Shown in pieces: positions 47,538-60,536 of a stretch of 64,000 nt of DNA. The stretch lies in assembly GCF_001456025.1 (NCBI RefSeq), contig NZ_LMTZ01000096.1, positions 1 to 64,000 of the forward strand. Reading direction: 5' to 3'. Under the pieces are notes generated by a model that did not search any database, had not been told where the DNA came from, and saw only the letters and a program-made list of their open reading frames with translations. The translations under genes were made by a program, and so were the position numbers. The stretch's first letter is position 1. Every line of letters starts with the position of its first letter. Origin of the DNA: Mastigocoleus testarum BC008. GTDB taxonomy: Bacteria; Cyanobacteriota; Cyanobacteriia; Cyanobacteriales; Nostocaceae.

Positions 47538-48737
47538 TTAAACAAACTTTTGACTGAACTCTTGGAGTAAATCTACTCTTCCTTTACGCAACATTGCTGG
47601 GTCTAATCTTTCAGTAGTGTTACAAGTCATCAAAACCACTAATCTTTGTCGCATTTGTATGCCAGAATGATCAATAACACTCTGGTATAGAGTTCCATCA
47701 AGTAAACTCAAAATATGCTCTGTTTTATTACTATATTGTGCTACTTCACTAGCGCGATCTTGAGCTAAATTATCTGCTTCGTTGATAATGAGACAAATTC
47801 TTTCTAAGTAAGATGGTGGAACAAAGTTGGAAATAGCATCATGATCCAAGATGAAGATAACATAACCCAAAGGTGCAAGGATTTCTTTCGCAACAGCTTG
47901 AGTCCAAGCTGTTTTCCCCGTCCCAGGTTTTCCGTGTACCAGAACAGCTAACTGGTTTTGATTAAGAATTGCTTGCTGTACTGAGTCAGTAAAAGTTTGG
48001 ATATTTGCTCCAAAAGTTTTGATGGGGAATTCACTATGAATTTTTCCCACACGACTTTGGTATCCACTCAGCATCACAGCTAAGTCGTAGGTTGCTTTAT
48101 TGATTAGTGGCTGTATATCTTTCGCCATTAAGGTATATTGTCTTCGACCTCTGTCATAGGGATCGATTTGGAGCCAAACATCATGTTGAGACCAATAAGC
48201 GTACACACTGTTGACAACATCCAAACGCTCCCAACCATTAAATTTTTCTACAGGAAAATAAAAGTCACGTTCTAAATAATATTGGGTAATAACATCCGGA
48301 CAACCTAGTAAATCTAAAACTCTGAATACAGCAATCTCCTGGAGACGGTTGAGGACATAGTCAATTGGAATACTATTACGGCTTACAAACTGAACTATGG
48401 GAGTCTCAGTGCTTAGAATATCTTTGTAACGATAGTCCGGCGATAAAGGTTCTGGTGTAATGTAATTCCAAAATTTTTCAACTTCATAACGCGTATCTTC
48501 AGAGAAAATATTTAATAAGTTTGCCCACCAAGCATAATTATTTCTACCTAAGTTTTCTCCAACACGACTTGCTAAATTCAAACTTTTTTGAGTTAACTCT
48601 TGCGTGTCTTGATGAAATAATTGCCACAAAAAATCCCAATCAAATTCACGATTAAATGGTCTCCAACCATTAGCAAGTAGGCTAGGTTGATTTTTGTTTC
48701 GATAGTCGTCACTTTTACCAAAATAATCAAATCCCAT
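47538..48737 (-). CDS. AAA-family ATPase with unassigned 230-aa N-terminal domain
   Basis: Walker A GKPGTGKT, Walker B LIINEAD, second region of homology/Arg finger MLRKGRVD. The N-terminal domain is Trp-rich and carries no known motif. Confidence 0.65.
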   Translation of the reverse strand: MGFDYFGKSDDYRNKNQPSLLANGWRPFNREFDWDFLWQLFHQDTQELTQKSLNLASRVGENLGRNNYAWWANLLNIFSEDTRYEVEKFWNYITPEPLSPDYRYKDILSTETPIVQFVSRNSIPIDYVLNRLQEIAVFRVLDLLGCPDVITQYYLERDFYFPVEKFNGWERLDVVNSVYAYWSQHDVWLQIDPYDRGRRQYTLMAKDIQPLINKATYDLAVMLSGYQSRVGKIHSEFPIKTFGANIQTFTDSVQQAILNQNQLAVLVHGKPGTGKTAWTQAVAKEILAPLGYVIFILDHDAISNFVPPSYLERICLIINEADNLAQDRASEVAQYSNKTEHILSLLDGTLYQSVIDHSGIQMRQRLVVLMTCNTTERLDPAMLRKGRVDLLQEFSQKFV

Positions 48738-50404: not shown

Positions 50405-51142
50405 ATGGGGGTGAAAATACAGAAAATACTATCACAGTGGGGAGTTGCTTCGCGAAGAAAAGCCGAAGAAATGATTAGGCATTCTCGCGTAAAAGTTAAT
50501 AATGAGCTAGCACATATAGGACAAAAAATAGACCCACAAATTGACATAATTGAAATTGATAATAATCCAGTATTACCTAAGAATAATCCGGAAAAAGTGT
50601 ACTTATTGTTACATAAACCTAAAGGTGTTGTAACAACATGTGATGACCCACAGGGAAGACAAACGGTTTTAGATTTATTACCACAAGAACTGAGAAAAGG
50701 AAAAGGAATTCATCCTGTTGGTCGTCTAGATGCTGATTCTACAGGAGCATTATTATTAACTAATGATGGCGAACTAACATTTCGACTGACTCATCCTCGT
50801 CACAGTGTCCCCAAGACTTATCGAGTAGTAGTAAAAGGATTTCCCCCGGAAGAAGTATTAGAACAATGGCGTCAGGGTGTGCTTTTAGATGGAAGGAGAA
50901 CTAGACCAGCAAAGGTGCGTCTGCTGAGAAAATTGGCTGCGACTAGTGAACTCGAAATTATTCTCAAGGAAGGAAGAAAACGCCAAATTCGCCTTGTGGC
51001 GAAACAAATGGGATACCCAGTAATCAAGCTGCATCGTACCGCTATTGGTCAAATCAAATTAAATACATCAAAAAAAGAGAGTCTATCTCCAGGACAATAC
51101 CGTTATCTCAAAGACTTTGAAGTTAATTTTTTGTACCAATAA
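50405..51142 (+). CDS. rRNA pseudouridine synthase (RsuA/RluB family)
   Basis: N-terminal S4 domain (KILSQWGVASRRKAEEMIR), catalytic HPVGRLDADSTGALLLTNDG, and KTYRV motif. Confidence 0.75.
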   Translation: MGVKIQKILSQWGVASRRKAEEMIRHSRVKVNNELAHIGQKIDPQIDIIEIDNNPVLPKNNPEKVYLLLHKPKGVVTTCDDPQGRQTVLDLLPQELRKGKGIHPVGRLDADSTGALLLTNDGELTFRLTHPRHSVPKTYRVVVKGFPPEEVLEQWRQGVLLDGRRTRPAKVRLLRKLAATSELEIILKEGRKRQIRLVAKQMGYPVIKLHRTAIGQIKLNTSKKESLSPGQYRYLKDFEVNFLYQ

Positions 51143-51233
51143 TTTGTATCAATAATTTGTGCGAATAATTTGTGCGAATAATCCCCGTATATCCCCATTA
51201 ATGATTAAGGTATTCCAAGGAGTCAAACCAAAG

Positions 51234-52034
51234 ATGAAGTGGTTTAAAAAGCAGGAAAAACAGCAGTCGAATATATCACTAGAAGAGCAAAGAGCAGAAA
51301 GATTAACGGAGATGGGTGCCCAACTACGCACTTGTCGTGAAGAAAAAGGTTTTTCGCTGGATGAAATTGTTGCAATGACAAGGATTTCACGTCGGTTATT
51401 GCAAGCAATAGAACAAGCGAATTTAGCGGAGCTTCCAGAACCAATTTATACTCAAGGTTTGATTAGAGAATTTGCTAATGTCCTTGGTTTTAATGGAGCG
51501 GAATTTGCTAGTACTTATCCTTTAGGTTCGAGTAAAATTACGATTAATTCACCCTGGGTTGTCAGACCAATTGGACAATTAAGCTCGGTACATCTTTATC
51601 TTATTTATATTTTCTTAATTTTATTTTCTATAAGTGGTTTATCTACTTTCTTAAATACTGCATCATTAAGTGCTAATAGTAATGTAAATGATTCGCAGTT
51701 GCAATTATCTCAAAATCCAGAAAAATCTCAGATAAATTCTGAAAAAGATTCCTCTGTTGGGAATCAAAAAAATAATCAACCATCCCAAAAACAAGTACAA
51801 GTAGGAATCACTTTGAAAGAAGAATCTTGGATTCGGGTGGTAGCGGATGGCAAAGTTAAATATGAAGGTAAATTAGCGAAGGGAAGTAAACGTAATTGGA
51901 AAGCAAATAAGGAACTTACAGTTCGTGCTGGGAATGCAGGGGGAGTTTTAGTAAGTGTCAATCAAGAAATGGCGAAAACAATGGGGAGATCGGGCGCGAT
52001 TGAAGAGGTGAAAGTTGCTACTTCTAGACAGTAA
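51234..52034 (+). CDS. rodZ: RodZ-like cytoskeleton protein (HTH_25 + TM + DUF4115)
   Basis: HTH region LRTCREEKGFSLDEIVAMTRIS, a TM helix (LYLIYIFLILFSI), and a C-terminal DUF4115-like beta domain. The start is taken at the ATG preceded by AAGGAG. Confidence 0.6.
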   Translation: MKWFKKQEKQQSNISLEEQRAERLTEMGAQLRTCREEKGFSLDEIVAMTRISRRLLQAIEQANLAELPEPIYTQGLIREFANVLGFNGAEFASTYPLGSSKITINSPWVVRPIGQLSSVHLYLIYIFLILFSISGLSTFLNTASLSANSNVNDSQLQLSQNPEKSQINSEKDSSVGNQKNNQPSQKQVQVGITLKEESWIRVVADGKVKYEGKLAKGSKRNWKANKELTVRAGNAGGVLVSVNQEMAKTMGRSGAIEEVKVATSRQ

Positions 52035-52107: not shown

Positions 52108-52157
52108 GTAGAGACGTTGCATGTATTCTGTAGAGACGTTGCATGCAACGTCTCTAC
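52108..52157. repeat. palindromic dispersed element, one partial plus one full copy (GTAGAGACGTTGCATGCAACGTCTCTAC)
   Basis: gtagagacgttgcatg tattct gtagagacgttgcatgcaacgtctctac. The same 28-mer occurs in-frame inside the giant CDS at about 57586. Confidence 0.8.
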
Positions 52158-52473: not shown

Positions 52474-55400
52474 ATGACTGCATTTTCCTGCCACCGCCCC
52501 AAGGTTGCTCCCATTTGGGTTTTCTTGGTTACTTTTTTATTAATTATTTCTTTGTCCTTACCCTCGGTTAGCGCTCAAGAAGAAAAGCCAAAACCGCCGA
52601 AAGAATGGGAAATGAAAGGTATAGTAGCAGCGCTAAAAGACCCTTATGCAGTAGTAAGGCTGGAAGCTGCAAATAGATTAGGAACATATAAATTAGACCA
52701 TCCCAAAAACCAAATTCCCAACTATAAAGAAGTTGAGAATCTATTGCTTGAACAGTTATCACCTCCAGATAAGGAAGATAAAAAAGAAAAGAACTTTTCC
52801 CGTAGAGCTGCAGCAACAGCACTGGGGAATATAAAAGCGAAAGAATTTGCACCCCAAATTGCCCTACTCCTTAAAGATTCTGACTCGGATGTGCGTAATT
52901 CTGCAGCAACAGCACTGGGGAATATGAAAGCGAAAGAATTTGCACCCCAAATTGCCCTACTCCTTAAAGATTCTGACTCGGATGTGCGTAATTCCGCAGC
53001 AACAGCACTGGGGAATATGAAAGCGAAAGAAATTGCACCCCAAATTGCCCTACTCCTTAAAAGTTCTGAGTCTTCTGTGCGTAATTCCGCAGCAACAGCA
53101 CTGGGGAATATGAAAGCGAAAGAAATTGCACCCCAAATTGCCCTACTCCTTAAAGATTCTGACTCGGACGTGCGTAATTCCGCAGCAACAGCACTGGGGA
53201 ATATGAAAGCGAAAGAATTTGCACCCCAAATTGCCCTACTCCTTAAAGATTCTCAGTTTTATGTGCGTAATTCCGCAGCAACAGCACTGGGGGAGATGAA
53301 AGCGAAAGAATTTGCACCCCAAATTGCCCTACTTCTTAAAGATTCTAAGTCTTCTGTGCGTAATTCCGCAGCAACAGCACTGGGGGAGATGAAAGCGAAA
53401 GAAATTGCACCCCAAATTACCCTACTCCTTAAAGATTCTGAGTCTTCTGTGCGTTATTTCGCAGCAACAATACTGGGGAATATGAAAGCGAAAGAAATTG
53501 CACCCCAAATTGCCCTACTCCTTAAAAGTTCTGAGTCTTCTGTGCGTTATTCCGCAGCAAGAGCACTGGGGGAGATGAAAGCGAAAGAATTTGCACCCCA
53601 AATTGCCCTACTCCTTAAAGATTCTCAGTCTTCTGTGCGTTATTTCGCAGCAACAGCACTGGTGCAGATGAAAGCGAAAAAATTTGCACCCCAAATTGCC
53701 CTACTCCTTAAAGATTCTGAGTCTTCTGCGCGTAATTCTGCAGCAACAGCACTGGGGAATATGAAAGCGAAAGAATTTGCGCCCCAAATTGCCCTACTCC
53801 TTAAAGATTCTGAGTCTTCTGTGCGTAATTCCGCAGCAACAGCACTGGGGAATATGAAAGCGAAAGAATTTGCACCCCAAATTGCCCTACTCCTTAAAGA
53901 TTCTCAGTTTTATGTGCGTAATTCCGCAGCAACAGCACTGGTGCAGATGAAAGCGAAAGAATTTGCACCCCAAATTGCCCTACTTCTTAAAGATTCTAAG
54001 TCTTCTGTGCGTAATTCCGCAGCAACAGCACTGGGGGAGATGAAAGCGAAAGAAATTGCACCCCAAATTACCCTACTCCTTAAAGATTCTGACTCTTTTG
54101 TGCGTGATTTCGCAGCAAGAGCACTACCAAAGTTAGAAAAACAAGGTTTATCGGTCACTGTGCAAATTCTGAATGCAGTGCATTATTATCCTTCAGAAAT
54201 TAATCGATTGAGATTTTTAGCCCATTTTATCGGTGGTGGAGAGCAAGATGTAGAAACTCTAATGAAATGGATTGGTAAACCCAAAGTTAAAACTACACCA
54301 AATGATTTAACTGTTGCTCAAGGCAGGAAAATCATGAAATTATTTGAACGAAGTTGGAAACTGTGTGATTCCCTACCAGACTTACAACGGGAATTAGCAC
54401 GACAGATTGCTAGGGTTTCCAAAAAAGTTTCTTGGGAAGCATGGGACATCAATTTACTTCAACGTCACCATAAAAACCTTAAAGATGGCAGATCTCACTA
54501 TGCTGACACTGTGCATAGTGTTATTAATGATCTGGAATTTTGGAAATGGTTTTTTATTGCCAGAAATATTATCCTGATTCACCTTGCGATTTGGCTTACC
54601 CTGATTCTTCTTTACCCCAAATTTACTCCAGTTCTTGCACCTTTGTTATGGAATCCTTGGCTGAGACGAATTCTTGGTTTTGGTTATATTGGCTTACTGC
54701 TAACTTTGGTTCCCTGGTTCCGTGAAAGATTGTTACAACCATTTAAACCTTTGCTGTTAGCAGATGCACGATTAGATAATTTCGTTGAGCAAGGTTATTT
54801 TGGAGAATCTTATGTGAAGGTTCCACCGGGTAGTGTTCAAATTTTAAATTCAAGTCGGGATTTACGCAGGAATAAGAGATTTAGAGTTATTGGGAGCATG
54901 GGAAGTAATCACAGGGTCGAAATCTTAGGGGGATTGCTTTACTACGCTGGCGCTCCGTTCGCAATGACGAGTAGGTTTTTGAATCGCAAGGTCCATATGC
55001 TAAGGGGATTGCTTCACTACACTGGCGCTCCACTAGCCCGCAGCAAGCTGAACGCAATGACAGTAAATAACTATTCCCCAAAATATATTACGTCAAAAGT
55101 TCAACCAATTACTCAAGCAATCCCAAGTCTTCAAGGACAAATTGTCTTAGAAGGTGAATCTGGCTTGGGTAAATCAATGTTTCTGCGCCATTTAGCGAAT
55201 AATTCCCAGCGTATTCTTGTTTATCTCCCCGCTCAAAAGTGTGATAAAGGGGTAATCAAGGCAATTTCTGCCAAATTAAAAGAACAAGTAAATGATTTCA
55301 AGTTCCTAAAAAACCTGATTTACAATGGAGCCTTAGATATCTGCATCGACGGACTCAACGAAGTTACAGCAGACACTCGAGCAAAAATTTCCCAGTTTGC

Positions 55401-58113
55401 AGAAAGCTATTTCCGGGGCAATATAATTATGACAACCCAGCCCCTAGACTGGATACCGCCTTCCACTGCGAAGAAATACGAATTGCAGCCTTTAGAACGC
55501 GAACAGATTGAGCAATTTTTGCTGTTGCGTGGTGAGACGATTGGGGATTGGAGACTGGGGACTGGAGAAGACAAAGGAGTTAACGCATCATTTACACAAT
55601 ATGACCAAGCTTGTTCAAACTATCTTGCGGAAGCTTTCAACGAACAACAATCCCCAGAAGATTTAGCAGCAACCAAGCGAATTCTTTCTAACCCAATGGA
55701 TTTAACTTTGGTTGCCCTGATGCTATCACAAGGACAGCAACCAAATTTATTCCGCCTGCAAGAACAACAATATCAACTGATGGCGGCTGAATATCAGCGA
55801 GAATATCAGCGGGAATTTCCTTTAAAAAGGTTTTCTGAAGCTGTTTATCAAATGCGATTGTATGACGAAACCATTATACCCAGCAAGGAATTTGGTTCGG
55901 AATTAGTATGCTTGGGAAATGAAAAATATAAGATGGTTATCAGTCGTCAGTGGGAGAGTGACAAAGGGGAACCAGAGAAAACCTGGTATTTTCGCCACGA
56001 TAAAATTATGGAATTCTTCTTGGTACAAAACTTTCGCGGTGCAGATAAAGCAGTTCAAGAACGGATTCAAAAACACATTAGTGACCCTAGGTTTCGCGGC
56101 GTTTATTTATTATTAGCTAATTTACTTCCTTTAGATTATGCAGTTGAACTGCGAGAAAGAATTATCGATTATGCTGCTAACAGCAAAGACCATACATTAA
56201 GCGATAAGTTTGTTCAGTTATTACAGTTGCGCTTACCCCTAAAATGGACGCAAGGTGCAAAAGTAAAGTCATTATTACAACAACACGAACAAAAAACCCA
56301 GTATTTAGATTTAGTAGCAAAATTTTTAGAACAGGTCGATGCGACGGTCAAACGGGAGCAAAAACTATACCTGACCATTGAAAATATCGAAAGCAGTTTG
56401 AGGAATTATGCGCCTTTCCCGGTTGCGATCGCGATCGATACCCCAACAGATGAAGATATTAGTCATTTGGTAAAACTTTCCCAACAATTGAAAGCAGAAT
56501 CGACAGCAGAAACAGAAATAACAACAGAGCGATCGCCCAAAGCTGGCTTACTAATCTACAAAATTCCTCCAGATCCTGCAGCCAGAATGGAAATTGCTAA
56601 GGTGCGGTTGCGGGATAATTTTCTCTTAATTCCCATTCCCATCACATCAGTGGAAAAAGCCTTAAGCGATAAAGACAATTGTATTGGCTTGCTGGATGAG
56701 TATATTGATCGATATCTCCAACATGCTGACTTCTTTGATGATCGCAATGCCATTACTGACACATTATCATTTTTCGGTCGTACAGAAATCTTACAACGCT
56801 TAGGAGAAGAACTACTAAGACATCAAGCATTAGGGCTTTTTGGATTGCGTAAATCAGGTAAAACCTCAGTTTTGATCCAATTGGGTTTTATGTTGCGGGA
56901 ATATCCAATCATACATATTGATTTGCAAAGCTATGGCGGTTCTCGTTACGCTGTGGATTTATTTAACAAGATTATTGATGGTTTATCTAGCTTAGAAAGT
57001 GAAACTCCCTTTCCCCAATTTGCACCATTTCCTCGAGAGCAACCTGCTGCTGAGTTAACAACTGAATTTATTCAACGGGTGAATGAATATGTCAGTGTGA
57101 TCCAAAACCAAACAAAATATCACAACCAAAAGAAATATAAACTACCCATCCCGTGCTTTTTAGACGAAGTAGAAAGAATTATTCCCACACCAGAACATGA
57201 TCGCGAAAAAGCTGAAGAATTCAATGCTTTTTTTGGAGCGTTGCGAGTATTATGTCAAGAAAAGAAAATTTCATTACTGGTTGCTGACGTACATCCCGAT
57301 TGCAATCGGATTAATTCCTGGACGCAAGCAGGAGTTGCAACAAACCCAGTTTTTAGCTTCTTCAAAGAAATATTTTTACCACCTTTCTCAGAGGAAGAAA
57401 CCCAAGAGATGTTGGTAAATCTTGGTAAATTAATGGGTTTAGAGTTTGATGCAGCTACACCCCAACAAATCCATTACCAAAGTGGCGGACATCCCTTCGT
57501 TTCTCGTCAAATTGCCCGTTTTCTCACAAATAAAATTAAAGATCAATACAGTTCAGTTAAGAATTCTTTTGAAACAAATAACGCTGTAGAGACGTTGCAT
57601 GCAACGTCTCTACCAAGAAATTCAGGTTTATCTGAACCATATTTGATTAAAAATAAGCAGGACTTACCTCATCAAAACAATAACATGCTCATTGAGTGGG
57701 GAATGGTAGAAAAATATTTAAAGAAAACCTTAACCCAAAGAGGTCAGTTAAAAAATTATCTAGAAAAAAGTATTTGGGAAGATTTAGAGAAACGCAACTT
57801 TCAAGTTGCTATTGCTGTGCTGCAATGCATCGCCTGTAACGAAGATTCACATCGGAAAATAACACAAACAGCCTTATTTAACCAACTAAAAAGCCAATTT
57901 ACAACCAACCGGTTATTAAATGCTTGCAATTGGCTGATAAGTGTTGGATTGTTATATGAGGAGGAAGTTGAAGAACTAAAAGTGGAAGATTCAGAAATTC
58001 AAACCCAAGAAGCTCAAAGTAACGAACTTTACCATATCCGAATTCCTCTCTTATCAAGGTGGATCTACATGCAGATGACAGAAGAGGAAATTGAGCAATG
58101 TACGATTCCGTAG
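52474..58113 (+). CDS. giant multidomain protein: signal peptide, 14 HEAT(PBS-lyase-type) repeats, TM segments, NACHT-type STAND NTPase, second STAND-like P-loop ATPase module
   Basis: Signal-peptide-like MTAFSCHRPKVAPIWVFLVTFLLIISLSLPSVSA. 14 copies of a 31-aa repeat (AATALGNMKAKEFAPQIALLLKDSDSDVRNS). Hydrophobic helices at about aa 690-750. Walker A GESGLGKS and Walker B ICIDGLNEV (NACHT hhhDGhDE). NPMDLTLVALM and WYFRHDKIMEFFLVQ NACHT-like motifs. A second module runs FFGRTEILQRL...GLRKSGKTS...GGHPFVSRQIARFL. Confidence 0.8.
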   Translation: MTAFSCHRPKVAPIWVFLVTFLLIISLSLPSVSAQEEKPKPPKEWEMKGIVAALKDPYAVVRLEAANRLGTYKLDHPKNQIPNYKEVENLLLEQLSPPDKEDKKEKNFSRRAAATALGNIKAKEFAPQIALLLKDSDSDVRNSAATALGNMKAKEFAPQIALLLKDSDSDVRNSAATALGNMKAKEIAPQIALLLKSSESSVRNSAATALGNMKAKEIAPQIALLLKDSDSDVRNSAATALGNMKAKEFAPQIALLLKDSQFYVRNSAATALGEMKAKEFAPQIALLLKDSKSSVRNSAATALGEMKAKEIAPQITLLLKDSESSVRYFAATILGNMKAKEIAPQIALLLKSSESSVRYSAARALGEMKAKEFAPQIALLLKDSQSSVRYFAATALVQMKAKKFAPQIALLLKDSESSARNSAATALGNMKAKEFAPQIALLLKDSESSVRNSAATALGNMKAKEFAPQIALLLKDSQFYVRNSAATALVQMKAKEFAPQIALLLKDSKSSVRNSAATALGEMKAKEIAPQITLLLKDSDSFVRDFAARALPKLEKQGLSVTVQILNAVHYYPSEINRLRFLAHFIGGGEQDVETLMKWIGKPKVKTTPNDLTVAQGRKIMKLFERSWKLCDSLPDLQRELARQIARVSKKVSWEAWDINLLQRHHKNLKDGRSHYADTVHSVINDLEFWKWFFIARNIILIHLAIWLTLILLYPKFTPVLAPLLWNPWLRRILGFGYIGLLLTLVPWFRERLLQPFKPLLLADARLDNFVEQGYFGESYVKVPPGSVQILNSSRDLRRNKRFRVIGSMGSNHRVEILGGLLYYAGAPFAMTSRFLNRKVHMLRGLLHYTGAPLARSKLNAMTVNNYSPKYITSKVQPITQAIPSLQGQIVLEGESGLGKSMFLRHLANNSQRILVYLPAQKCDKGVIKAISAKLKEQVNDFKFLKNLIYNGALDICIDGLNEVTADTRAKISQFAESYFRGNIIMTTQPLDWIPPSTAKKYELQPLEREQIEQFLLLRGETIGDWRLGTGEDKGVNASFTQYDQACSNYLAEAFNEQQSPEDLAATKRILSNPMDLTLVALMLSQGQQPNLFRLQEQQYQLMAAEYQREYQREFPLKRFSEAVYQMRLYDETIIPSKEFGSELVCLGNEKYKMVISRQWESDKGEPEKTWYFRHDKIMEFFLVQNFRGADKAVQERIQKHISDPRFRGVYLLLANLLPLDYAVELRERIIDYAANSKDHTLSDKFVQLLQLRLPLKWTQGAKVKSLLQQHEQKTQYLDLVAKFLEQVDATVKREQKLYLTIENIESSLRNYAPFPVAIAIDTPTDEDISHLVKLSQQLKAESTAETEITTERSPKAGLLIYKIPPDPAARMEIAKVRLRDNFLLIPIPITSVEKALSDKDNCIGLLDEYIDRYLQHADFFDDRNAITDTLSFFGRTEILQRLGEELLRHQALGLFGLRKSGKTSVLIQLGFMLREYPIIHIDLQSYGGSRYAVDLFNKIIDGLSSLESETPFPQFAPFPREQPAAELTTEFIQRVNEYVSVIQNQTKYHNQKKYKLPIPCFLDEVERIIPTPEHDREKAEEFNAFFGALRVLCQEKKISLLVADVHPDCNRINSWTQAGVATNPVFSFFKEIFLPPFSEEETQEMLVNLGKLMGLEFDAATPQQIHYQSGGHPFVSRQIARFLTNKIKDQYSSVKNSFETNNAVETLHATSLPRNSGLSEPYLIKNKQDLPHQNNNMLIEWGMVEKYLKKTLTQRGQLKNYLEKSIWEDLEKRNFQVAIAVLQCIACNEDSHRKITQTALFNQLKSQFTTNRLLNACNWLISVGLLYEEEVEELKVEDSEIQTQEAQSNELYHIRIPLLSRWIYMQMTEEEIEQCTIP
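52810..54115 (+). repeat. 93-bp tandem repeat array (about 14 near-identical units) encoding the HEAT repeats
   Basis: Units differ at only a few nt. There is a higher-order duplication: units 5-7 resemble units 12-14, DSQFYVRNS...DSKSSVRNS...ITLLLK. Confidence 0.85.
54890..55075 (+). repeat. two tandem in-frame copies of a MITE-arm-like segment embedded in the giant CDS
   Basis: GGGATTGCTTtACTACgCTGGCGCTCCgttCGCAATGACg and GGGATTGCTTcACTACaCTGGCGCTCCa...CGCAATGACa, related to the right arm of the 52214-52381 element. Translated as GLLYYAGAPFAMTS / GLLHYTGAPLARSKLNAMT. Confidence 0.5.
57586..57613 (+). repeat. 28-nt perfect palindrome GTAGAGACGTTGCATGCAACGTCTCTAC inserted in-frame in the giant CDS (encodes VETLHATSL)
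   Basis: Exact copy of the intergenic palindrome at about 52130-52157. Confidence 0.8.
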
Positions 58114-60536
58114 GAGAACGTCCTTTTGACAATTACCGCACCCCCATAACAGAACCCTCCTACTTCTTTGGACGTAGTGAATTAATTCATACCATGCTCA
58201 AATTCCCCTTTCAGGTGCGGATACTCTTAGGTGGAAGACGTTTGGGTAAAACCAGCGCCTTACGTGCTGTCGAATGGAACTTGCTCGATCCTAATAATAA
58301 TCCCGATCGCAATCCCAATTCTAAATATTTTCGTCGTGCTTTCCCGGTATTAATCGATCTCAAGCTAGAACAACCTAAAGACTTAGATAATCTACGTTAT
58401 ATCCTGATCGCCAGACTCCGAGAAGCAATGGAACGCTGGCGAGAAATTCCTGTAACATACATTAACCAAATGTACCCCGAGTTTCTCAATCAAGTTAAGG
58501 GTGCTGAAGTTACTTTGAATTTCCTCTCAAGTTTAGGTATTAATTGTAACAGTAATAATTCCGATACCGAAAAACGGTTAAACAACGATAACTTTCGACT
58601 CGCTTTCTTAAAAACAAAAGAAGAACTACGAAAACAAAAAGAATTAAACTTTCAAGGCGTCTGCTTCCTGATTGATGGTGCTGAATTCATTGTCCGTCAA
58701 ACTTGGGCTACTGATGCTTGGTCTTATCTACGGGGTTTGAAAGATACCGACATCGCCATCAAATCAGCTTTAGGTTTGTTACTTTCCGGTTACCGAGACT
58801 TAAAAGAATATCAGCAACGCGTCGGTTCGCCATTATTGAATATAGCAGAAATTGAATGGTTAACCACATTAAGTGAAGAAGATACCAGAAAATTGGTATG
58901 TGACCGCATTTCGCACATGTTGCAGACTTATGACACCGAAAAAGAAAAAATTTTTTTGAGTGAAGACGCGATCGCACAAATTATCGAATGGTCTGGATGT
59001 CATCCCTACTTGATCCAACAATTGCTCAACATGATTTTTGACTCCAACCAGCAATTTGAGCTTGAGCAGCAATGCTTAGATACTCATCTCATCAACAAAT
59101 TATTACAGCATCACGATAAAGATTTCTCTTCCTGGTGGAACACCGAACACCTCTCTGGTTGCTTTAGTGAAGACGAACGCAAAATTTACTGTACCTTAAT
59201 CGAACAACGCCAAGCGACCCCCAAGGATTTAGCAAAAAATACAAGTTTCAGCCGATTTAAAGTATCAGAAGCATTAGAAGTAATGGCTGGTACCGGTGTA
59301 ATTCACCTACTAGATGATGAATCTTACATATTAGGTTCTCGTCTATTTCAAGAATGGGTAAAAGATTTAACTTCTAATACTTTAAGTCCTAATACATCTG
59401 AGTCAGACTCTGAAAAGCAATCGCAACAAGTTTTATTAGATAAACAATTATGTAAACAAAATCAAATTCAAAATCAAACTCAAATTAATTACCAGGATTT
59501 TCAAATCATAGTTGATAAAAATCATTATATTCGTGCTTCCTCAGAACAAGGGGAAGTTAAAAACCAATTATTATTAGATATCAATAAAATAAAACTGACA
59601 TTAAAACTAGTCGAACTCAATCAGACAGATACAGAACTGCTCAAAGCACTAGGTCACGAGCTTTACCAAGCACTCTTTCCCGATAAAATTAACGCTCGAT
59701 TCCACGCTACATTAGCAAGCGCACAAACAAAAAAAGAAAGCGTCCGCTTACGTCTAATATTTGAATCGCCCGAATTAGCTTCTCTACCTTGGGAATTCCT
59801 CTACGACGAAGATACCAACACTTTTTTAGGAAACAACACCGAAACCGTTCTTTCTCGTTATATCGATCTTCCCTTAAGAAAAAGCGATCTAAAAGCCGTT
59901 AGTTTACCTCTGAAAGTCCTATTAGTCATTTCCACCCCCACTGACTTAGCCACATTAGACGTTGCTGGAGAAGAAAAACTAATTCAAGAAGCCTTAAAAA
60001 CACACATAGAAACAAAAAACATTGAGTTAGATATCTTACAAACAGCAACGAGACGAGAAATCCAGCAAAAGCTAAATGAGAAGCATTACGATGTGTTTCA
60101 CTTTATCGGTCATGGTGAATTTGAGAATAACAAAGGTTACATCATTCTTGTAGATGAAGCAAGAAAAGCGAAATATATGGATGATGAAAACTTCGCTAAC
60201 TTCTTTTTAGGTAGTCATAATGTGGGATTAGTTATTCTAAATTCCTGTCAAGGAGCAAAAGTAGCTTCAAATCAAGCGATGAGGGGTACAGCACCAAACC
60301 TAGTGCGTCGGGGAATACCCGCAGTAATAGCAATGCAGTATTCTATTTTCGACAACACAGCAAAACTTTTTGCAGACGAATTTTATCGTACTTTAGCACT
60401 AGGTTATCCCATAGATGCAGCAATCCAGAAAACTCGGAATGCAATTTCTATGGAATGTGGACTCAATACACGGGACTTTGCAACACCAGTGCTGTACATG
60501 CGAGCCAAAGACGGAATTATTTTAAGTGGATTATGA
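58098..60536 (+). CDS. STAND-like P-loop ATPase fused to a CHAT (caspase-like) protease domain
   Basis: FFGRSELIHTML...GGRRLGKTS (Walker A), FLIDGAEF (Walker B), GCHPYLIQQL (GxP). The C-terminal CHAT carries a His/Cys dyad in FHFIGHGEF and LVILNSCQGAK. Its ATG overlaps the upstream gene by 16 nt, and GAGGAAA lies 7 nt upstream. Confidence 0.8.
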   Translation: MYDSVGERPFDNYRTPITEPSYFFGRSELIHTMLKFPFQVRILLGGRRLGKTSALRAVEWNLLDPNNNPDRNPNSKYFRRAFPVLIDLKLEQPKDLDNLRYILIARLREAMERWREIPVTYINQMYPEFLNQVKGAEVTLNFLSSLGINCNSNNSDTEKRLNNDNFRLAFLKTKEELRKQKELNFQGVCFLIDGAEFIVRQTWATDAWSYLRGLKDTDIAIKSALGLLLSGYRDLKEYQQRVGSPLLNIAEIEWLTTLSEEDTRKLVCDRISHMLQTYDTEKEKIFLSEDAIAQIIEWSGCHPYLIQQLLNMIFDSNQQFELEQQCLDTHLINKLLQHHDKDFSSWWNTEHLSGCFSEDERKIYCTLIEQRQATPKDLAKNTSFSRFKVSEALEVMAGTGVIHLLDDESYILGSRLFQEWVKDLTSNTLSPNTSESDSEKQSQQVLLDKQLCKQNQIQNQTQINYQDFQIIVDKNHYIRASSEQGEVKNQLLLDINKIKLTLKLVELNQTDTELLKALGHELYQALFPDKINARFHATLASAQTKKESVRLRLIFESPELASLPWEFLYDEDTNTFLGNNTETVLSRYIDLPLRKSDLKAVSLPLKVLLVISTPTDLATLDVAGEEKLIQEALKTHIETKNIELDILQTATRREIQQKLNEKHYDVFHFIGHGEFENNKGYIILVDEARKAKYMDDENFANFFLGSHNVGLVILNSCQGAKVASNQAMRGTAPNLVRRGIPAVIAMQYSIFDNTAKLFADEFYRTLALGYPIDAAIQKTRNAISMECGLNTRDFATPVLYMRAKDGIILSGL

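Follow-up and report, generated by a model that had tools for sequence, protein, structure and literature searches.

A near-identical HEAT-repeat array in Mastigocoleus testarum that probably forms most of the ectodomain of an NLR-like membrane receptor

The stretch of DNA analysed here, referred to as the window, is 64,000 nucleotides long and comprises positions 1 to 64,000 of contig NZ_LMTZ01000096.1 from the cyanobacterium Mastigocoleus testarum BC008 (assembly GCF_001456025.1). It contains a gene for a protein of 1879 residues, which we call the receptor, and within that gene a tandem array of near-identical 93-bp units. The units are 31-residue HEAT repeats of the alphaRep type that form a regular solenoid, and their variable residues lie on the exposed binding face of the solenoid, not on its buried face. 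The array is not old and stable, and at this one locus the whole ectodomain has been swapped between two Mastigocoleus strains. The array probably supplies the greater part of the ectodomain with which a single-pass membrane receptor binds its ligand; inside the cell this receptor would carry an NLR-like (STAND) NTPase switch, and we infer that the array acts as the sensor of the receptor.

Structure of the 93-bp array

Tandem Repeats Finder identified a single array at 52810-54125, with a period of 93, 14.2 copies, 92% matches, 0% indels and a score of 2156. It is in frame within the open reading frame (ORF) 52474..58113 on the forward strand, which encodes the receptor. Steps of 93 nt from 52810 give 14 full units of 31 residues (to 54111; 1302 bp) with the consensus AATALGNMKAKEFAPQIALLLKDSESSVRNS. 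The fifteenth repeat position is divergent past its first 14 nt and corresponds to a C-terminal cap. The 14 units have a mean pairwise nucleotide identity of 91.6%, with 0-12 differences per pair and 25 of the 93 nucleotide positions variable, and the self-identity of the protein at a lag of 31 residues is 0.82.

An earlier note, made by reading the sequence without database searches, had described 14 near-identical repeats in tandem, and both the repeat scan and the unit alignment bear this out. It had also placed the variation in a few residue motifs, all of which are present among the units (DSDSD, SSESS, DSQFY, DSKSS, GNMK, GEMK, VQMK, EF and EI), and had proposed that units 5-7 were used again as units 12-14. 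Units 5, 6 and 7 differ from units 12, 13 and 14 by 0, 2 and 3 nt respectively (5 in 279 nt), against a mean of 7.8 between units, and units 5 and 12 are identical across all 93 nt. A three-unit block pair this good occurs in only 0.8% of random unit orders (permutation p = 0.008). Of the 78 informative site pairs within the 93-bp unit, 14 have all four gametes, an indication that variants have been reassorted from unit to unit. These two results agree with the recent duplication and reshuffling that the earlier note had suggested. It had also dismissed a minus-strand ORF within the array as an artefact of the repeats, rightly so (Table 1).

Substitutions at the variable sites include C/T, G/T, G/A and G/C. 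They thus lack adenine specificity, and on this ground mutagenesis of the array by a diversity-generating retroelement (DGR) was rejected. A reverse-transcriptase domain is absent from the eight neighbouring ORFs scanned.

Highly identical tandem repeats are prone to recombination, which would suit a classical contingency (phase-variable) locus where slippage switches the gene on and off. However, the unit is 93 nt long (3 x 31), the array has no indels and 14 of its 14 units are in frame, so that gain or loss of a unit alters the length of the protein and never its reading frame; nor is there any short simple-sequence tract within or ahead of the coding region. We therefore regard a contingency locus as highly improbable.

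Fold of the repeats and location of the variable residues

Pfam searches matched the array (residues ~100-550) to HEAT_2 at 200.6 bits (cut-off 27.7), HEAT at 156.7 (23.5), HEAT_EZ at 149 (27) and HEAT_PBS at 83.2 (20.9), in agreement with the earlier identification of the units as HEAT repeats. The best sequence matches in the PDB are artificial alphaRep proteins, which align without gaps and with a period of 31 residues (E = 4e-44). The AlphaFold2 model of the ectodomain, which was predicted from the single sequence, has a predicted local distance difference test score (pLDDT) of 85-95 over the array, and consists of alternating helices of 11-14 residues, where helix A corresponds to unit positions 11-21 and helix B to positions 26-31 and 1-7. 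The best Foldseek matches of this model are again alphaRep proteins (6fsq; 6bzx, with a target-normalised TM-score of 0.81), together with the PP2A A subunit.

In the alphaRep library, the randomised positions 18, 19, 22, 23, 26 and 30 make up the concave binding face (PMC3754942). They correspond to positions 26, 27, 30, 31, 3 and 7 of the unit, and all six are variable in the array. In the window array, 5.8 of the 11.9 bits of entropy fall on these six positions (permutation p = 0.003); the average for four arrays is 6.1 of 13.2 bits (p = 0.0003). Ten arrays of 35-residue units likewise vary most at the equivalent positions. Position 25 of the unit, just ahead of helix B, is highly variable as well. 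The earlier note had remarked that variable residues on the buried face would speak against a sensor; they are found on a face of helix B that matches the alphaRep binding positions.

An alternative is neutral concerted evolution, in which the HEAT array would be a periplasmic spacer, ruler or scaffold, its variable sites would be the least constrained part of the surface, and no recognition diversity would be generated. The substitution ratios within the arrays match neutrality. A count of distinct changes among the window units (28 nonsynonymous, 5 synonymous) gives a pN/pS (dN/dS) of about 1.9, not significantly greater than 1 (binomial p = 0.12). Three other arrays, with units extracted from orthologues by motif anchoring, have pN/pS values of 1.23, 0.46 and 1.45; none of the four (0.46 to 1.93) differs significantly from 1, and pooled they give p = 0.54. 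The dN/dS comparison proposed in the earlier note thus gives no significant excess of nonsynonymous change. Copy number, which ranges from 2 to 15 over the family with no obvious rule, also suits the neutral explanation.

Against it stands the way in which the variation is distributed. On helix B the variability has a moment of 0.61 (p = 0.0003) and is confined to one face; helix A shows no such one-sidedness, and the polar residues in it and in the loop between repeats (K9, K11, E12, Q16 and K22) do not vary, or hardly at all. At 14 loci, with arrays of 31- or 35-residue units, it is the six alphaRep positions that vary, and these have been shown experimentally to bind in alphaRep proteins. 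Furthermore, the ectodomain is exchanged whole between strains, as described below, while the cytoplasmic part is strongly constrained: pN/pS is 0.07-0.15 in NTPase 1, NTPase 2 and the CHAT gene, such that the ratio in the array is ~13-27 times that in the rest (Fisher's exact p = 4e-11, from approximate counts). The cytoplasmic part is thus under strong purifying selection. We consider the neutral explanation to be rather unlikely, if a serious one.

Turnover of the array and exchange of the ectodomain

Mastigocoleus sp. MO_188.B34 has a syntenic locus (L001/L055), with the same upstream neighbours and CHAT partner gene as in the window. In blastn comparisons, the flanks and the part of the gene coding for the cytoplasmic domains are 91-93% identical in nucleotide sequence between the two strains, whereas the part coding for the mature ectodomain does not align at all (Table 1). 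In its place L001 has about six HEAT units of 35 residues and a different juxtamembrane domain. It is unlikely that this ectodomain is an assembly chimera with a paralogue from the same metagenome-assembled genome: it is 81% identical to that of an orthologue on a Rivularia chromosome (L009), and only 63-66% identical to that of its own paralogue (L070).

A second comparison is provided by Tolypothrix (L003, L004 and L005), in which the flanks and cytoplasmic parts are 93-95% identical but the arrays only 85-89%, near-equally in every register. Compared unit by unit, the Tolypothrix arrays show 14.4 differences on the diagonal and 12.8 off it, so there is no positional correspondence between units. 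Nucleotide identity is 0.87-0.92 within arrays, against 0.69-0.72 between window and Tolypothrix units. The synonymous difference among the window units is 0.049, which is below the 0.13-0.26 found between Mastigocoleus strains in the rest of the gene, and it follows that the units were homogenised or duplicated after the lineages split. L005 and L006 are 100% identical over 12 kb, which makes that pair uninformative as a strain comparison.

Repeat number and order therefore differ across the family (the L001 cassette, the Tolypothrix mismatch and the range of 2-15 copies), in comparisons where M. testarum is represented by a single isolate, the nearest relatives are metagenome-assembled and the window is from an Illumina-only assembly. 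Shared repeat number and order among relatives, which the earlier note had named as the mark of an old array, were found neither in L001 nor in Tolypothrix.

We also note that the arrays of L003 and L008 are 87% alike, compared to 82% for the cytoplasmic parts of those genes. This would be explained by DNA-level conservation of the unit scaffold or by the movement of arrays from one genome to another.

Membrane topology

The receptor matches, with 100% identity, the Mastigocoleus testarum protein P0001, which is annotated as “HEAT repeat domain-containing protein”. Its features are listed in Table 1. A total of 71 family proteins have the N-terminal motif, and in most of these a basic n-region is followed by an h-region of ~18 residues and the sequence PWV(S/N)A-(K/E)E, where the hyphen marks the predicted cleavage site; a few proteins are truncated at the N-terminus. 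The corresponding sequence in the receptor reads …LSLPSVSA-QEE, and cleavage is predicted to occur between VSA and QEE. The alternative start codon at M47, which would lead to a cytoplasmic HEAT domain, was rejected because the signal peptide is conserved throughout the family.

Only two segments of the receptor exceed the usual Kyte-Doolittle threshold of 1.6, namely the h-region of the signal peptide and residues 692-714. The loop following residue 714 carries mean charges of +2.9/-0.1 over 38 homologues. A second hydrophobic segment, at residues 733-749, is probably membrane-associated or re-entrant, with no full span. A model with two membrane helices after the HEAT domain was set aside, on the grounds that this segment is sub-threshold, that its helix is broken in the AlphaFold2 model, and that it has basic flanks on both sides. 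The simplest topology would be that of a type I receptor, with the HEAT array and the juxtamembrane domain outside and the remainder of the protein inside. The N-terminal position of the repeats, after a signal peptide, places them almost certainly outside the cytoplasm, in contrast to NLR sensor domains.

The juxtamembrane domain (residues 547-691) has no family match in Pfam. Identity within the family is 44-75%, and the domain occurs as two types, each of which tracks one repeat type.

The cytoplasmic linker between the membrane segments and NTPase 1 is variable and probably disordered, and constitutes a second fast-evolving patch of the receptor gene. It carries an internal near-duplication, LLYYAGAPFAMTSR / LLHYTGAPLARSK.

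Table 1. Features of the receptor gene and its partner gene. Coordinates are those of the window; aa, amino acid residues of the protein concerned. The hyphen in VSA-QEE marks the cleavage site.
Feature	Coordinates	Strand	Basis
Receptor-like protein gene, 1879 aa: signal peptide, HEAT array, juxtamembrane domain, membrane helix, NTPase 1, NTPase 2	52474..58113	+	ORF; domain searches, models
Sec-type signal peptide, aa 1-34, predicted signal peptidase I site VSA-QEE	52474..52575	+	Kyte-Doolittle peak 2.51; conservation in the family
Two degenerate N-terminal HEAT repeats (N-cap), aa 47-112	52612..52809	+	Sequence; AlphaFold2 helices H10-20, H25-38, H50-61, H69-85
Ectodomain cassette (mature ectodomain) replaced in L001	52632..54501	+	No nucleotide alignment; flanks and rest of gene 88-93% identical (blastn)
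14 near-identical 93-bp units, each a 31-aa alphaRep-like HEAT repeat	52810..54111	+	Tandem-repeat scan, unit alignment, AlphaFold2 model
Units 5-7, first copy of duplicated block	53182..53460	+	0, 2, 3 nt from units 12-14; permutation p = 0.008
Units 12-14, second copy of duplicated block	53833..54111	+	Comparison with units 5-7
Antisense ORF, 82 aa, not a gene	53910..54158	-	Translation is the repeat read backwards; 8 stops in this frame across the array
C-cap HEAT repeat and helical juxtamembrane domain, aa 547-691 (145 aa)	54112..54546	+	AlphaFold2 helices
Confident transmembrane helix, aa 692-714	54547..54615	+	Kyte-Doolittle 2.14; part of a continuous 37-residue AlphaFold2 helix
Second hydrophobic segment, aa 733-749	54670..54720	+	Kyte-Doolittle 1.27 (family mean 1.20); three short AlphaFold2 helices; basic residues on both sides
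Cytoplasmic linker, aa ~798-862	54866..55060	+	No nucleotide alignment to L001; pLDDT <50 (model residues 241-325)
NTPase 1, NACHT-like STAND module (nucleotide-binding domain, helical domain, winged helix), aa 854-1253	55033..56232	+	AlphaFold2 and Foldseek
NTPase 1 Walker A, GESGLGKS	55153-55176	+	Motif
NTPase 1 Walker B, DICIDGLNE	55336-55362	+	Motif
NTPase 1 TTQP (usually TSRP)	55423-55443	+	Motif reads IIMTTQP
NTPase 2, nSTAND1-like module, aa 1254-1879	56233..58113	+	Pfam nSTAND1, 24.5 bits
NTPase 2 Walker A, GLRKSGKTS	56842-56868	+	Motif
NTPase 2 Walker B, CFLDEVE	57154-57174	+	Motif
Partner gene: third P-loop NTPase and winged helix-turn-helix (aa 1-425), CHAT protease (aa 517-787)	58098..60536	+	Pfam; motifs

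NTPase modules and the partner gene

A sequence search of the PDB with the cytoplasmic part of the receptor gave no significant match (the best was RuvB, with E = 0.06), and structure prediction was therefore needed for its classification. The AlphaFold2 model of residues 548-1253 (pLDDT 75.9) has five strands with helices, followed by a helical bundle and then by a β-hairpin with helices. The top PDB matches of NTPase 1 found by Foldseek are NLRC4 (6e-6), NOD2, NLRP3 and NAIP5-NLRC4, with E-values from 6e-6 to 5e-4 over 367-459 aligned columns. Because the TM-scores to these NLRs are low, at 0.24-0.26, we regard the support as moderate: the model suggests an NLR-like order of domains, with a structural likeness to known NLRs. 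This fits the placing of the repeats, in the earlier note, on the ligand-binding side of an NLR-like protein. The Walker A and Walker B residues of NTPase 1 (G347, S349, G352, K353, S354, D408, D412 and G413) are invariant in 38 homologues.

NTPase 2 is missing from short-form paralogues, which stop at the residue equivalent to receptor residue 1253. The partner gene overlaps the end of the receptor gene (stop codon) by 16 nt, and the overlap is the same in L001 and L002. It contains the motifs GGRRLGKTS, CFLIDGAE, HFIGHG and LNSCQG, of which the last two would, by analogy, be the His/Cys catalytic dyad of the CHAT protease. The CHAT domain scores 111.1 bits in Pfam (cut-off 24), and the TrmB-like winged helix-turn-helix 24.2-25.2 bits, just under its cut-off of 25.6. 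In Tolypothrix (L003, L004 and L005), the partner retains the third NTPase and the winged helix-turn-helix, with 69% identity to residues 1-422, and lacks CHAT; hence the output module differs between lineages.

P0001 and several of its homologues are labelled “PBS lyase” or “HEAT repeat-containing PBS lyase”, and there are partial matches to the NCBIfam models for CpcE and NblB, so that a phycobilisome lyase or degradation protein of the CpcE, NblB or PBS-lyase type has to be considered. The scores are however far below the curated cut-offs (104.4 against 330 for CpcE, 95.9 against 300 for NblB and 55.8 against 600 for CpeY), and the matches do not extend beyond the generic HEAT repeats. Nor does a cytoplasmic lyase agree with the presence of a signal peptide, a membrane helix, three NTPases and a CHAT protease. 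We find this explanation scarcely credible.

Strength of the assignments and of the assembly

Several points weigh against the reading of this protein as an NLR-like membrane receptor with a diversified ectodomain. The ratios given above are compatible with relaxed constraint at the surface, with no adaptive diversification, and we do not claim positive selection on the units. The topology is predicted from hydropathy, charge bias and the signal-peptide pattern, and if residues 733-749 were to span the membrane, the NTPases would be on the wrong side. The Pfam NACHT model scores 18.7-21.2 bits on NTPase 1 against a cut-off of 26.7, and covers the P-loop region only. Members of the STAND/NLR NACHT clade have a sensor-1 arginine in a TSRP-like motif after strand 4. 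This arginine is absent from NTPase 1, in which the motif reads IIMTTQP, and T441 and Q442 are invariant in the family. The nSTAND1 match of NTPase 2 is likewise sub-threshold, at 24.5 bits against 27.1; we note that this family (PF20703) is precomputed for many orthologues of the receptor. In PADLOC, the receptor is matched only by generic HEAT models, with nothing downstream of the array, and the sole match of the partner gene is a CHAT-type model, SAVED_CHAT. No named defence system could be assigned to the receptor from the PADLOC models.

The assembly adds a further caveat. The number and order of the units and the block duplication come from a BC008 assembly made from Illumina reads only (2x150 and 2x300), by merging two assemblies and scaffolding the result (PMC4732328). 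The genomes of the closest relatives were assembled from metagenomes, a setting in which repeat numbers may collapse, as illustrated by L002 (assembled with MEGAHIT), which has only 3 units. It could thus be argued that the array is real but that its unit number, its unit order and the 5-7/12-14 block are short-read assembly errors, and the identity of units 5 and 12 over 93 nt would fit, as would the many contigs of related short-read genomes that stop inside the array. However, a 300-nt read covers about three units, and the units next to these two differ between the two copies (7 nt between units 4 and 11, and 2 nt between units 6 and 13), which means that the unit order is resolvable in principle. 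Short-read assemblers usually collapse such arrays and do not expand them. Arrays of comparable size and identity are also present in complete genomes and a chromosome-level assembly: 15 units in L003, 14 in L004, 12.4 copies in L009 and 13.1 copies in L040. Errors of this kind therefore appear quite unlikely to us. A scan of JGI metagenome contigs with a 27-nt unit pattern, for other alleles of the array, gave no matches.

Distribution of the family

A scan of species-representative genomes with NTPase 1 found 73 loci, most of them in filamentous cyanobacteria (Nostocales, Leptolyngbyales, Phormidesmis and Oscillatoria), with scattered members in Planctomycetota, Flavilitoribacter, Ca. Parabeggiatoa, Chryseolinea, Kofleriaceae, Nitrospina and Alphaproteobacteria. 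An exhaustive profile-free search, with sequences clustered at 50% identity, gave 739 clusters at a limit of E <= 1e-3 and 411 at E <= 1e-30. The proteins occur in two forms: the short form ends after NTPase 1, while the long form has a fused NTPase 2 and a downstream gene for NTPase 3. Fusion of CHAT to NTPase 3 is limited to the window, L055, L007 and L009.

Nearly all of the cyanobacterial members contain arrays, with a period of 93, 99, 102 or 105 bp, 2-15 copies and mostly 80-99% matches (71-79% in a few), and these include members in complete genomes and in one chromosome-level assembly. Within the long form, the ectodomain type (31- or 35-residue units, each with its own juxtamembrane domain) does not track the relatedness of the cytoplasmic part, a mismatch that fits repeated cassette exchange.

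Relatives of NTPase 1 are also found on plasmids, with 55% identity on plasmid p3 of Calothrix sp. PCC 7716 (L073) and ~33% in Rhizobium and Mesorhizobium. Two of the four plasmids are predicted to be conjugative. The presence of these relatives on plasmids fits horizontal spread of the family.

Surroundings of the receptor gene

A perfect 28-bp palindrome, GTAGAGACGTTGCATGCAACGTCTCTAC, occurs twice in the window, at 52130-52157 and 57586-57613, where none would be expected by chance. The first copy forms a terminator-like hairpin after a rodZ-like gene. The second lies in frame within the receptor gene, where it encodes VETLHATSL (residues 1705-1713), and is inside a gap in the alignment to L002 (57544-57671). 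The palindrome looks like a small dispersed palindromic element that has inserted into coding sequence.

Upstream, a 13-bp tandem repeat, TTTGTACCAATAA, is present in 4.1 copies at 51130-51182, at the junction of a pseudouridine synthase gene (50405-51142) and the rodZ-like ORF (51159-52034). Further upstream, 47538-48737 on the reverse strand encodes a 399-residue AAA+ ATPase with weak nSTAND5, TRIP13 and IetA-like matches, which is syntenic in L001 and may represent a separate defence-type gene near the receptor locus.

Proposed mechanism and function

We propose that the array is continually rebuilt by unequal crossing-over and by gene conversion between units, of which the 5-7/12-14 block and the reassorted sites would be traces. 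Such rebuilding would leave the scaffold uniform from unit to unit, but would bring a small set of surface residues into new combinations and alter the length of the solenoid, and in this way would change binding at the concave face. On a larger scale, homologous recombination within the conserved signal-peptide and membrane-proximal segments could replace the whole ectodomain. Binding of a ligand in the periplasm (or lumen) would be relayed through the membrane to NTPase 1, which would switch or oligomerise, engage NTPases 2 and 3, and activate the CHAT protease as the output.

The role of such a receptor is likely to be non-self sensing, directed either at phage and other invaders or acting between filaments, by analogy with NLRs and with the conflict systems of multicellular bacteria (PMC7159879, PMC8195603, PMC10907252). 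A more specific version of this proposal is possible, although we put it forward only tentatively. It holds that the protein is a bacterial transmembrane NLR for outside-in immunity or allorecognition, whose periplasmic HEAT solenoid would be a natural alphaRep-like library, re-sorted by unequal crossing-over and by exchange of cassettes (with 31- and 35-residue units). The solenoid would bind extracellular or periplasmic non-self molecules, such as phage parts at entry, foreign effectors or surface molecules of other filaments, and would signal by way of the single membrane helix to a NACHT-like switch, which in turn would fire a cascade of three NTPases and CHAT.

The earlier note had suggested that the array could be a hypervariable sensor or contingency locus. 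The turnover and the variability of the binding face fit the first of these terms, to the extent that the array is indeed a sensor, as we infer; the second does not hold for in-frame units of 93 nt with no indels. The analysis goes beyond that note in finding that the repeats are N-terminal and almost certainly exported, that the ectodomain is exchanged as a cassette, and that the array is characteristic of a whole family and not of this gene alone.

NLR-type receptors are regarded as cytosolic, and shuffling repeats with high internal conservation (HIC) have been documented mainly in fungi, and in bacteria for WD40 and TPR repeats. The receptor locus and several hundred related clusters suggest that filamentous cyanobacteria have a shuffling sensor outside the cytoplasm, which appears to be coupled through the membrane to a NACHT-like NTPase, with a caspase-like protease added in some lineages. 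If this is true, then one widespread family of at least 411 clusters (50% identity, E <= 1e-30) would unite a topology like that of Toll-like receptors, an NLR switch and the repeat shuffling of fungal NLRs. Confirmation would add an outside-in branch to bacterial STAND immunity, would provide a natural counterpart of the engineered alphaRep binders in which the identical six positions are varied, and would offer a tractable system for the study of recognition diversity generated by repeat recombination with no dedicated mutator. Such arrays break or collapse in short-read assemblies, and in consequence they are under-represented in annotation and often mislabelled “PBS lyase”.

Comparison with known systems

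The closest parallels in the diversification of repeats come from fungal NLRs. Their HIC repeats, as in the HET-D/HET-E/NWD family of Podospora, are of the WD40, ANK, TPR or HEAT type and diversify by shuffling (Dyrka et al. 2014, PMC4986451; PMC11761791). The receptor resembles them in combining a STAND NTPase with tandem repeats that are 80-90% identical within the protein, in the restriction of variation to a few positions of the binding surface, and in repeat number and order that appear to differ between strains. In both cases the reshuffling of units is at once the cause and the consequence of their high identity, and short-read assemblies fail. In contrast to the fungal repeats, which are cytosolic and C-terminal, those of the receptor are N-terminal and follow a signal peptide, with a membrane helix before the NTPase, and are probably extracytoplasmic. 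Furthermore, positive selection has been demonstrated in the fungi but not for the receptor array, and the host is a bacterium.

Bacterial NLR-like proteins with WD40 or TPR repeats that are 80-90% identical have also been described (Dyrka et al. 2020, bioRxiv 10.1101/2020.01.06.895854; Hu et al. 2017, PMC5587647). Like the receptor, they occur in filamentous or multicellular bacteria, above all cyanobacteria, they have units of 80-90% identity, and their diversity is confined to residues predicted as interaction hotspots. Their sensors, however, are cytoplasmic and C-terminal, and these reports describe neither exchange of an ectodomain cassette nor a module of three NTPases. The word HEAT is absent from the 2020 preprint.

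The alphaRep binders were derived from natural thermostable HEAT-like (PBS_HEAT) repeats (Guellouz et al. 2013, PMC3754942). They share with the receptor array a unit of 31 residues, the scaffold LKD..xxVRxxAAxALGx, variability at the six library positions and a variable number of repeats. They are man-made soluble proteins from a synthetic library, whereas the array is natural, with combinations that would arise from recombination between repeats, and it also varies at unit position 25.

Targeted variability of a binding surface is also seen in the DGR-diversified sensors of STAND and ternary systems in multicellular bacteria (Dore et al. 2024, PMC10907252). These are putative antigen sensors on NACHT or nSTAND1 NTPases with CHAT or peptidase effectors, and some are predicted to be periplasmic. 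Unlike the receptor array, for which we propose recombination between repeats of a HEAT solenoid with no adenine specificity, they rely on reverse-transcriptase mutagenesis of a C-type lectin fold.

With the NACHT NLRs of animals and with bNACHT and Avs proteins (the comparison being with NLRC4, NOD2 and NLRP3), NTPase 1 shares the predicted order of nucleotide-binding, helical and winged-helix domains, a Walker A motif and a Walker B motif of the DGhxE type. The association of the receptor with a caspase-like (CHAT) protease recalls the NLR-caspase inflammasomes. It differs from all of these in its sub-threshold match to Pfam NACHT, in having TTQP in place of TSRP, in an N-terminal sensor outside the cytoplasm, and in its two extra NTPase modules.

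Toll-like receptors and the leucine-rich repeat (LRR) receptors of plants combine an extracytoplasmic solenoid, a single membrane span and a cytoplasmic signalling module. The likeness to the receptor is one of topology only: there is no homology, the solenoid is made of LRRs and not of HEAT repeats, and signalling is by TIR or kinase domains and not by STAND NTPases.

We found no description of a family combining HEAT repeats, a membrane helix and a NACHT-like NTPase, nor of the exchange of its ectodomain, in the literature searched, of which coverage was incomplete. The present system is therefore best filed as a new case of a known principle. Repeat shuffling is already established, and what is new is a bacterial array of the HEAT/alphaRep type, its placement N-terminal to the NTPase and, most probably, outside the cytoplasm, and the swapping of the ectodomain as a cassette.

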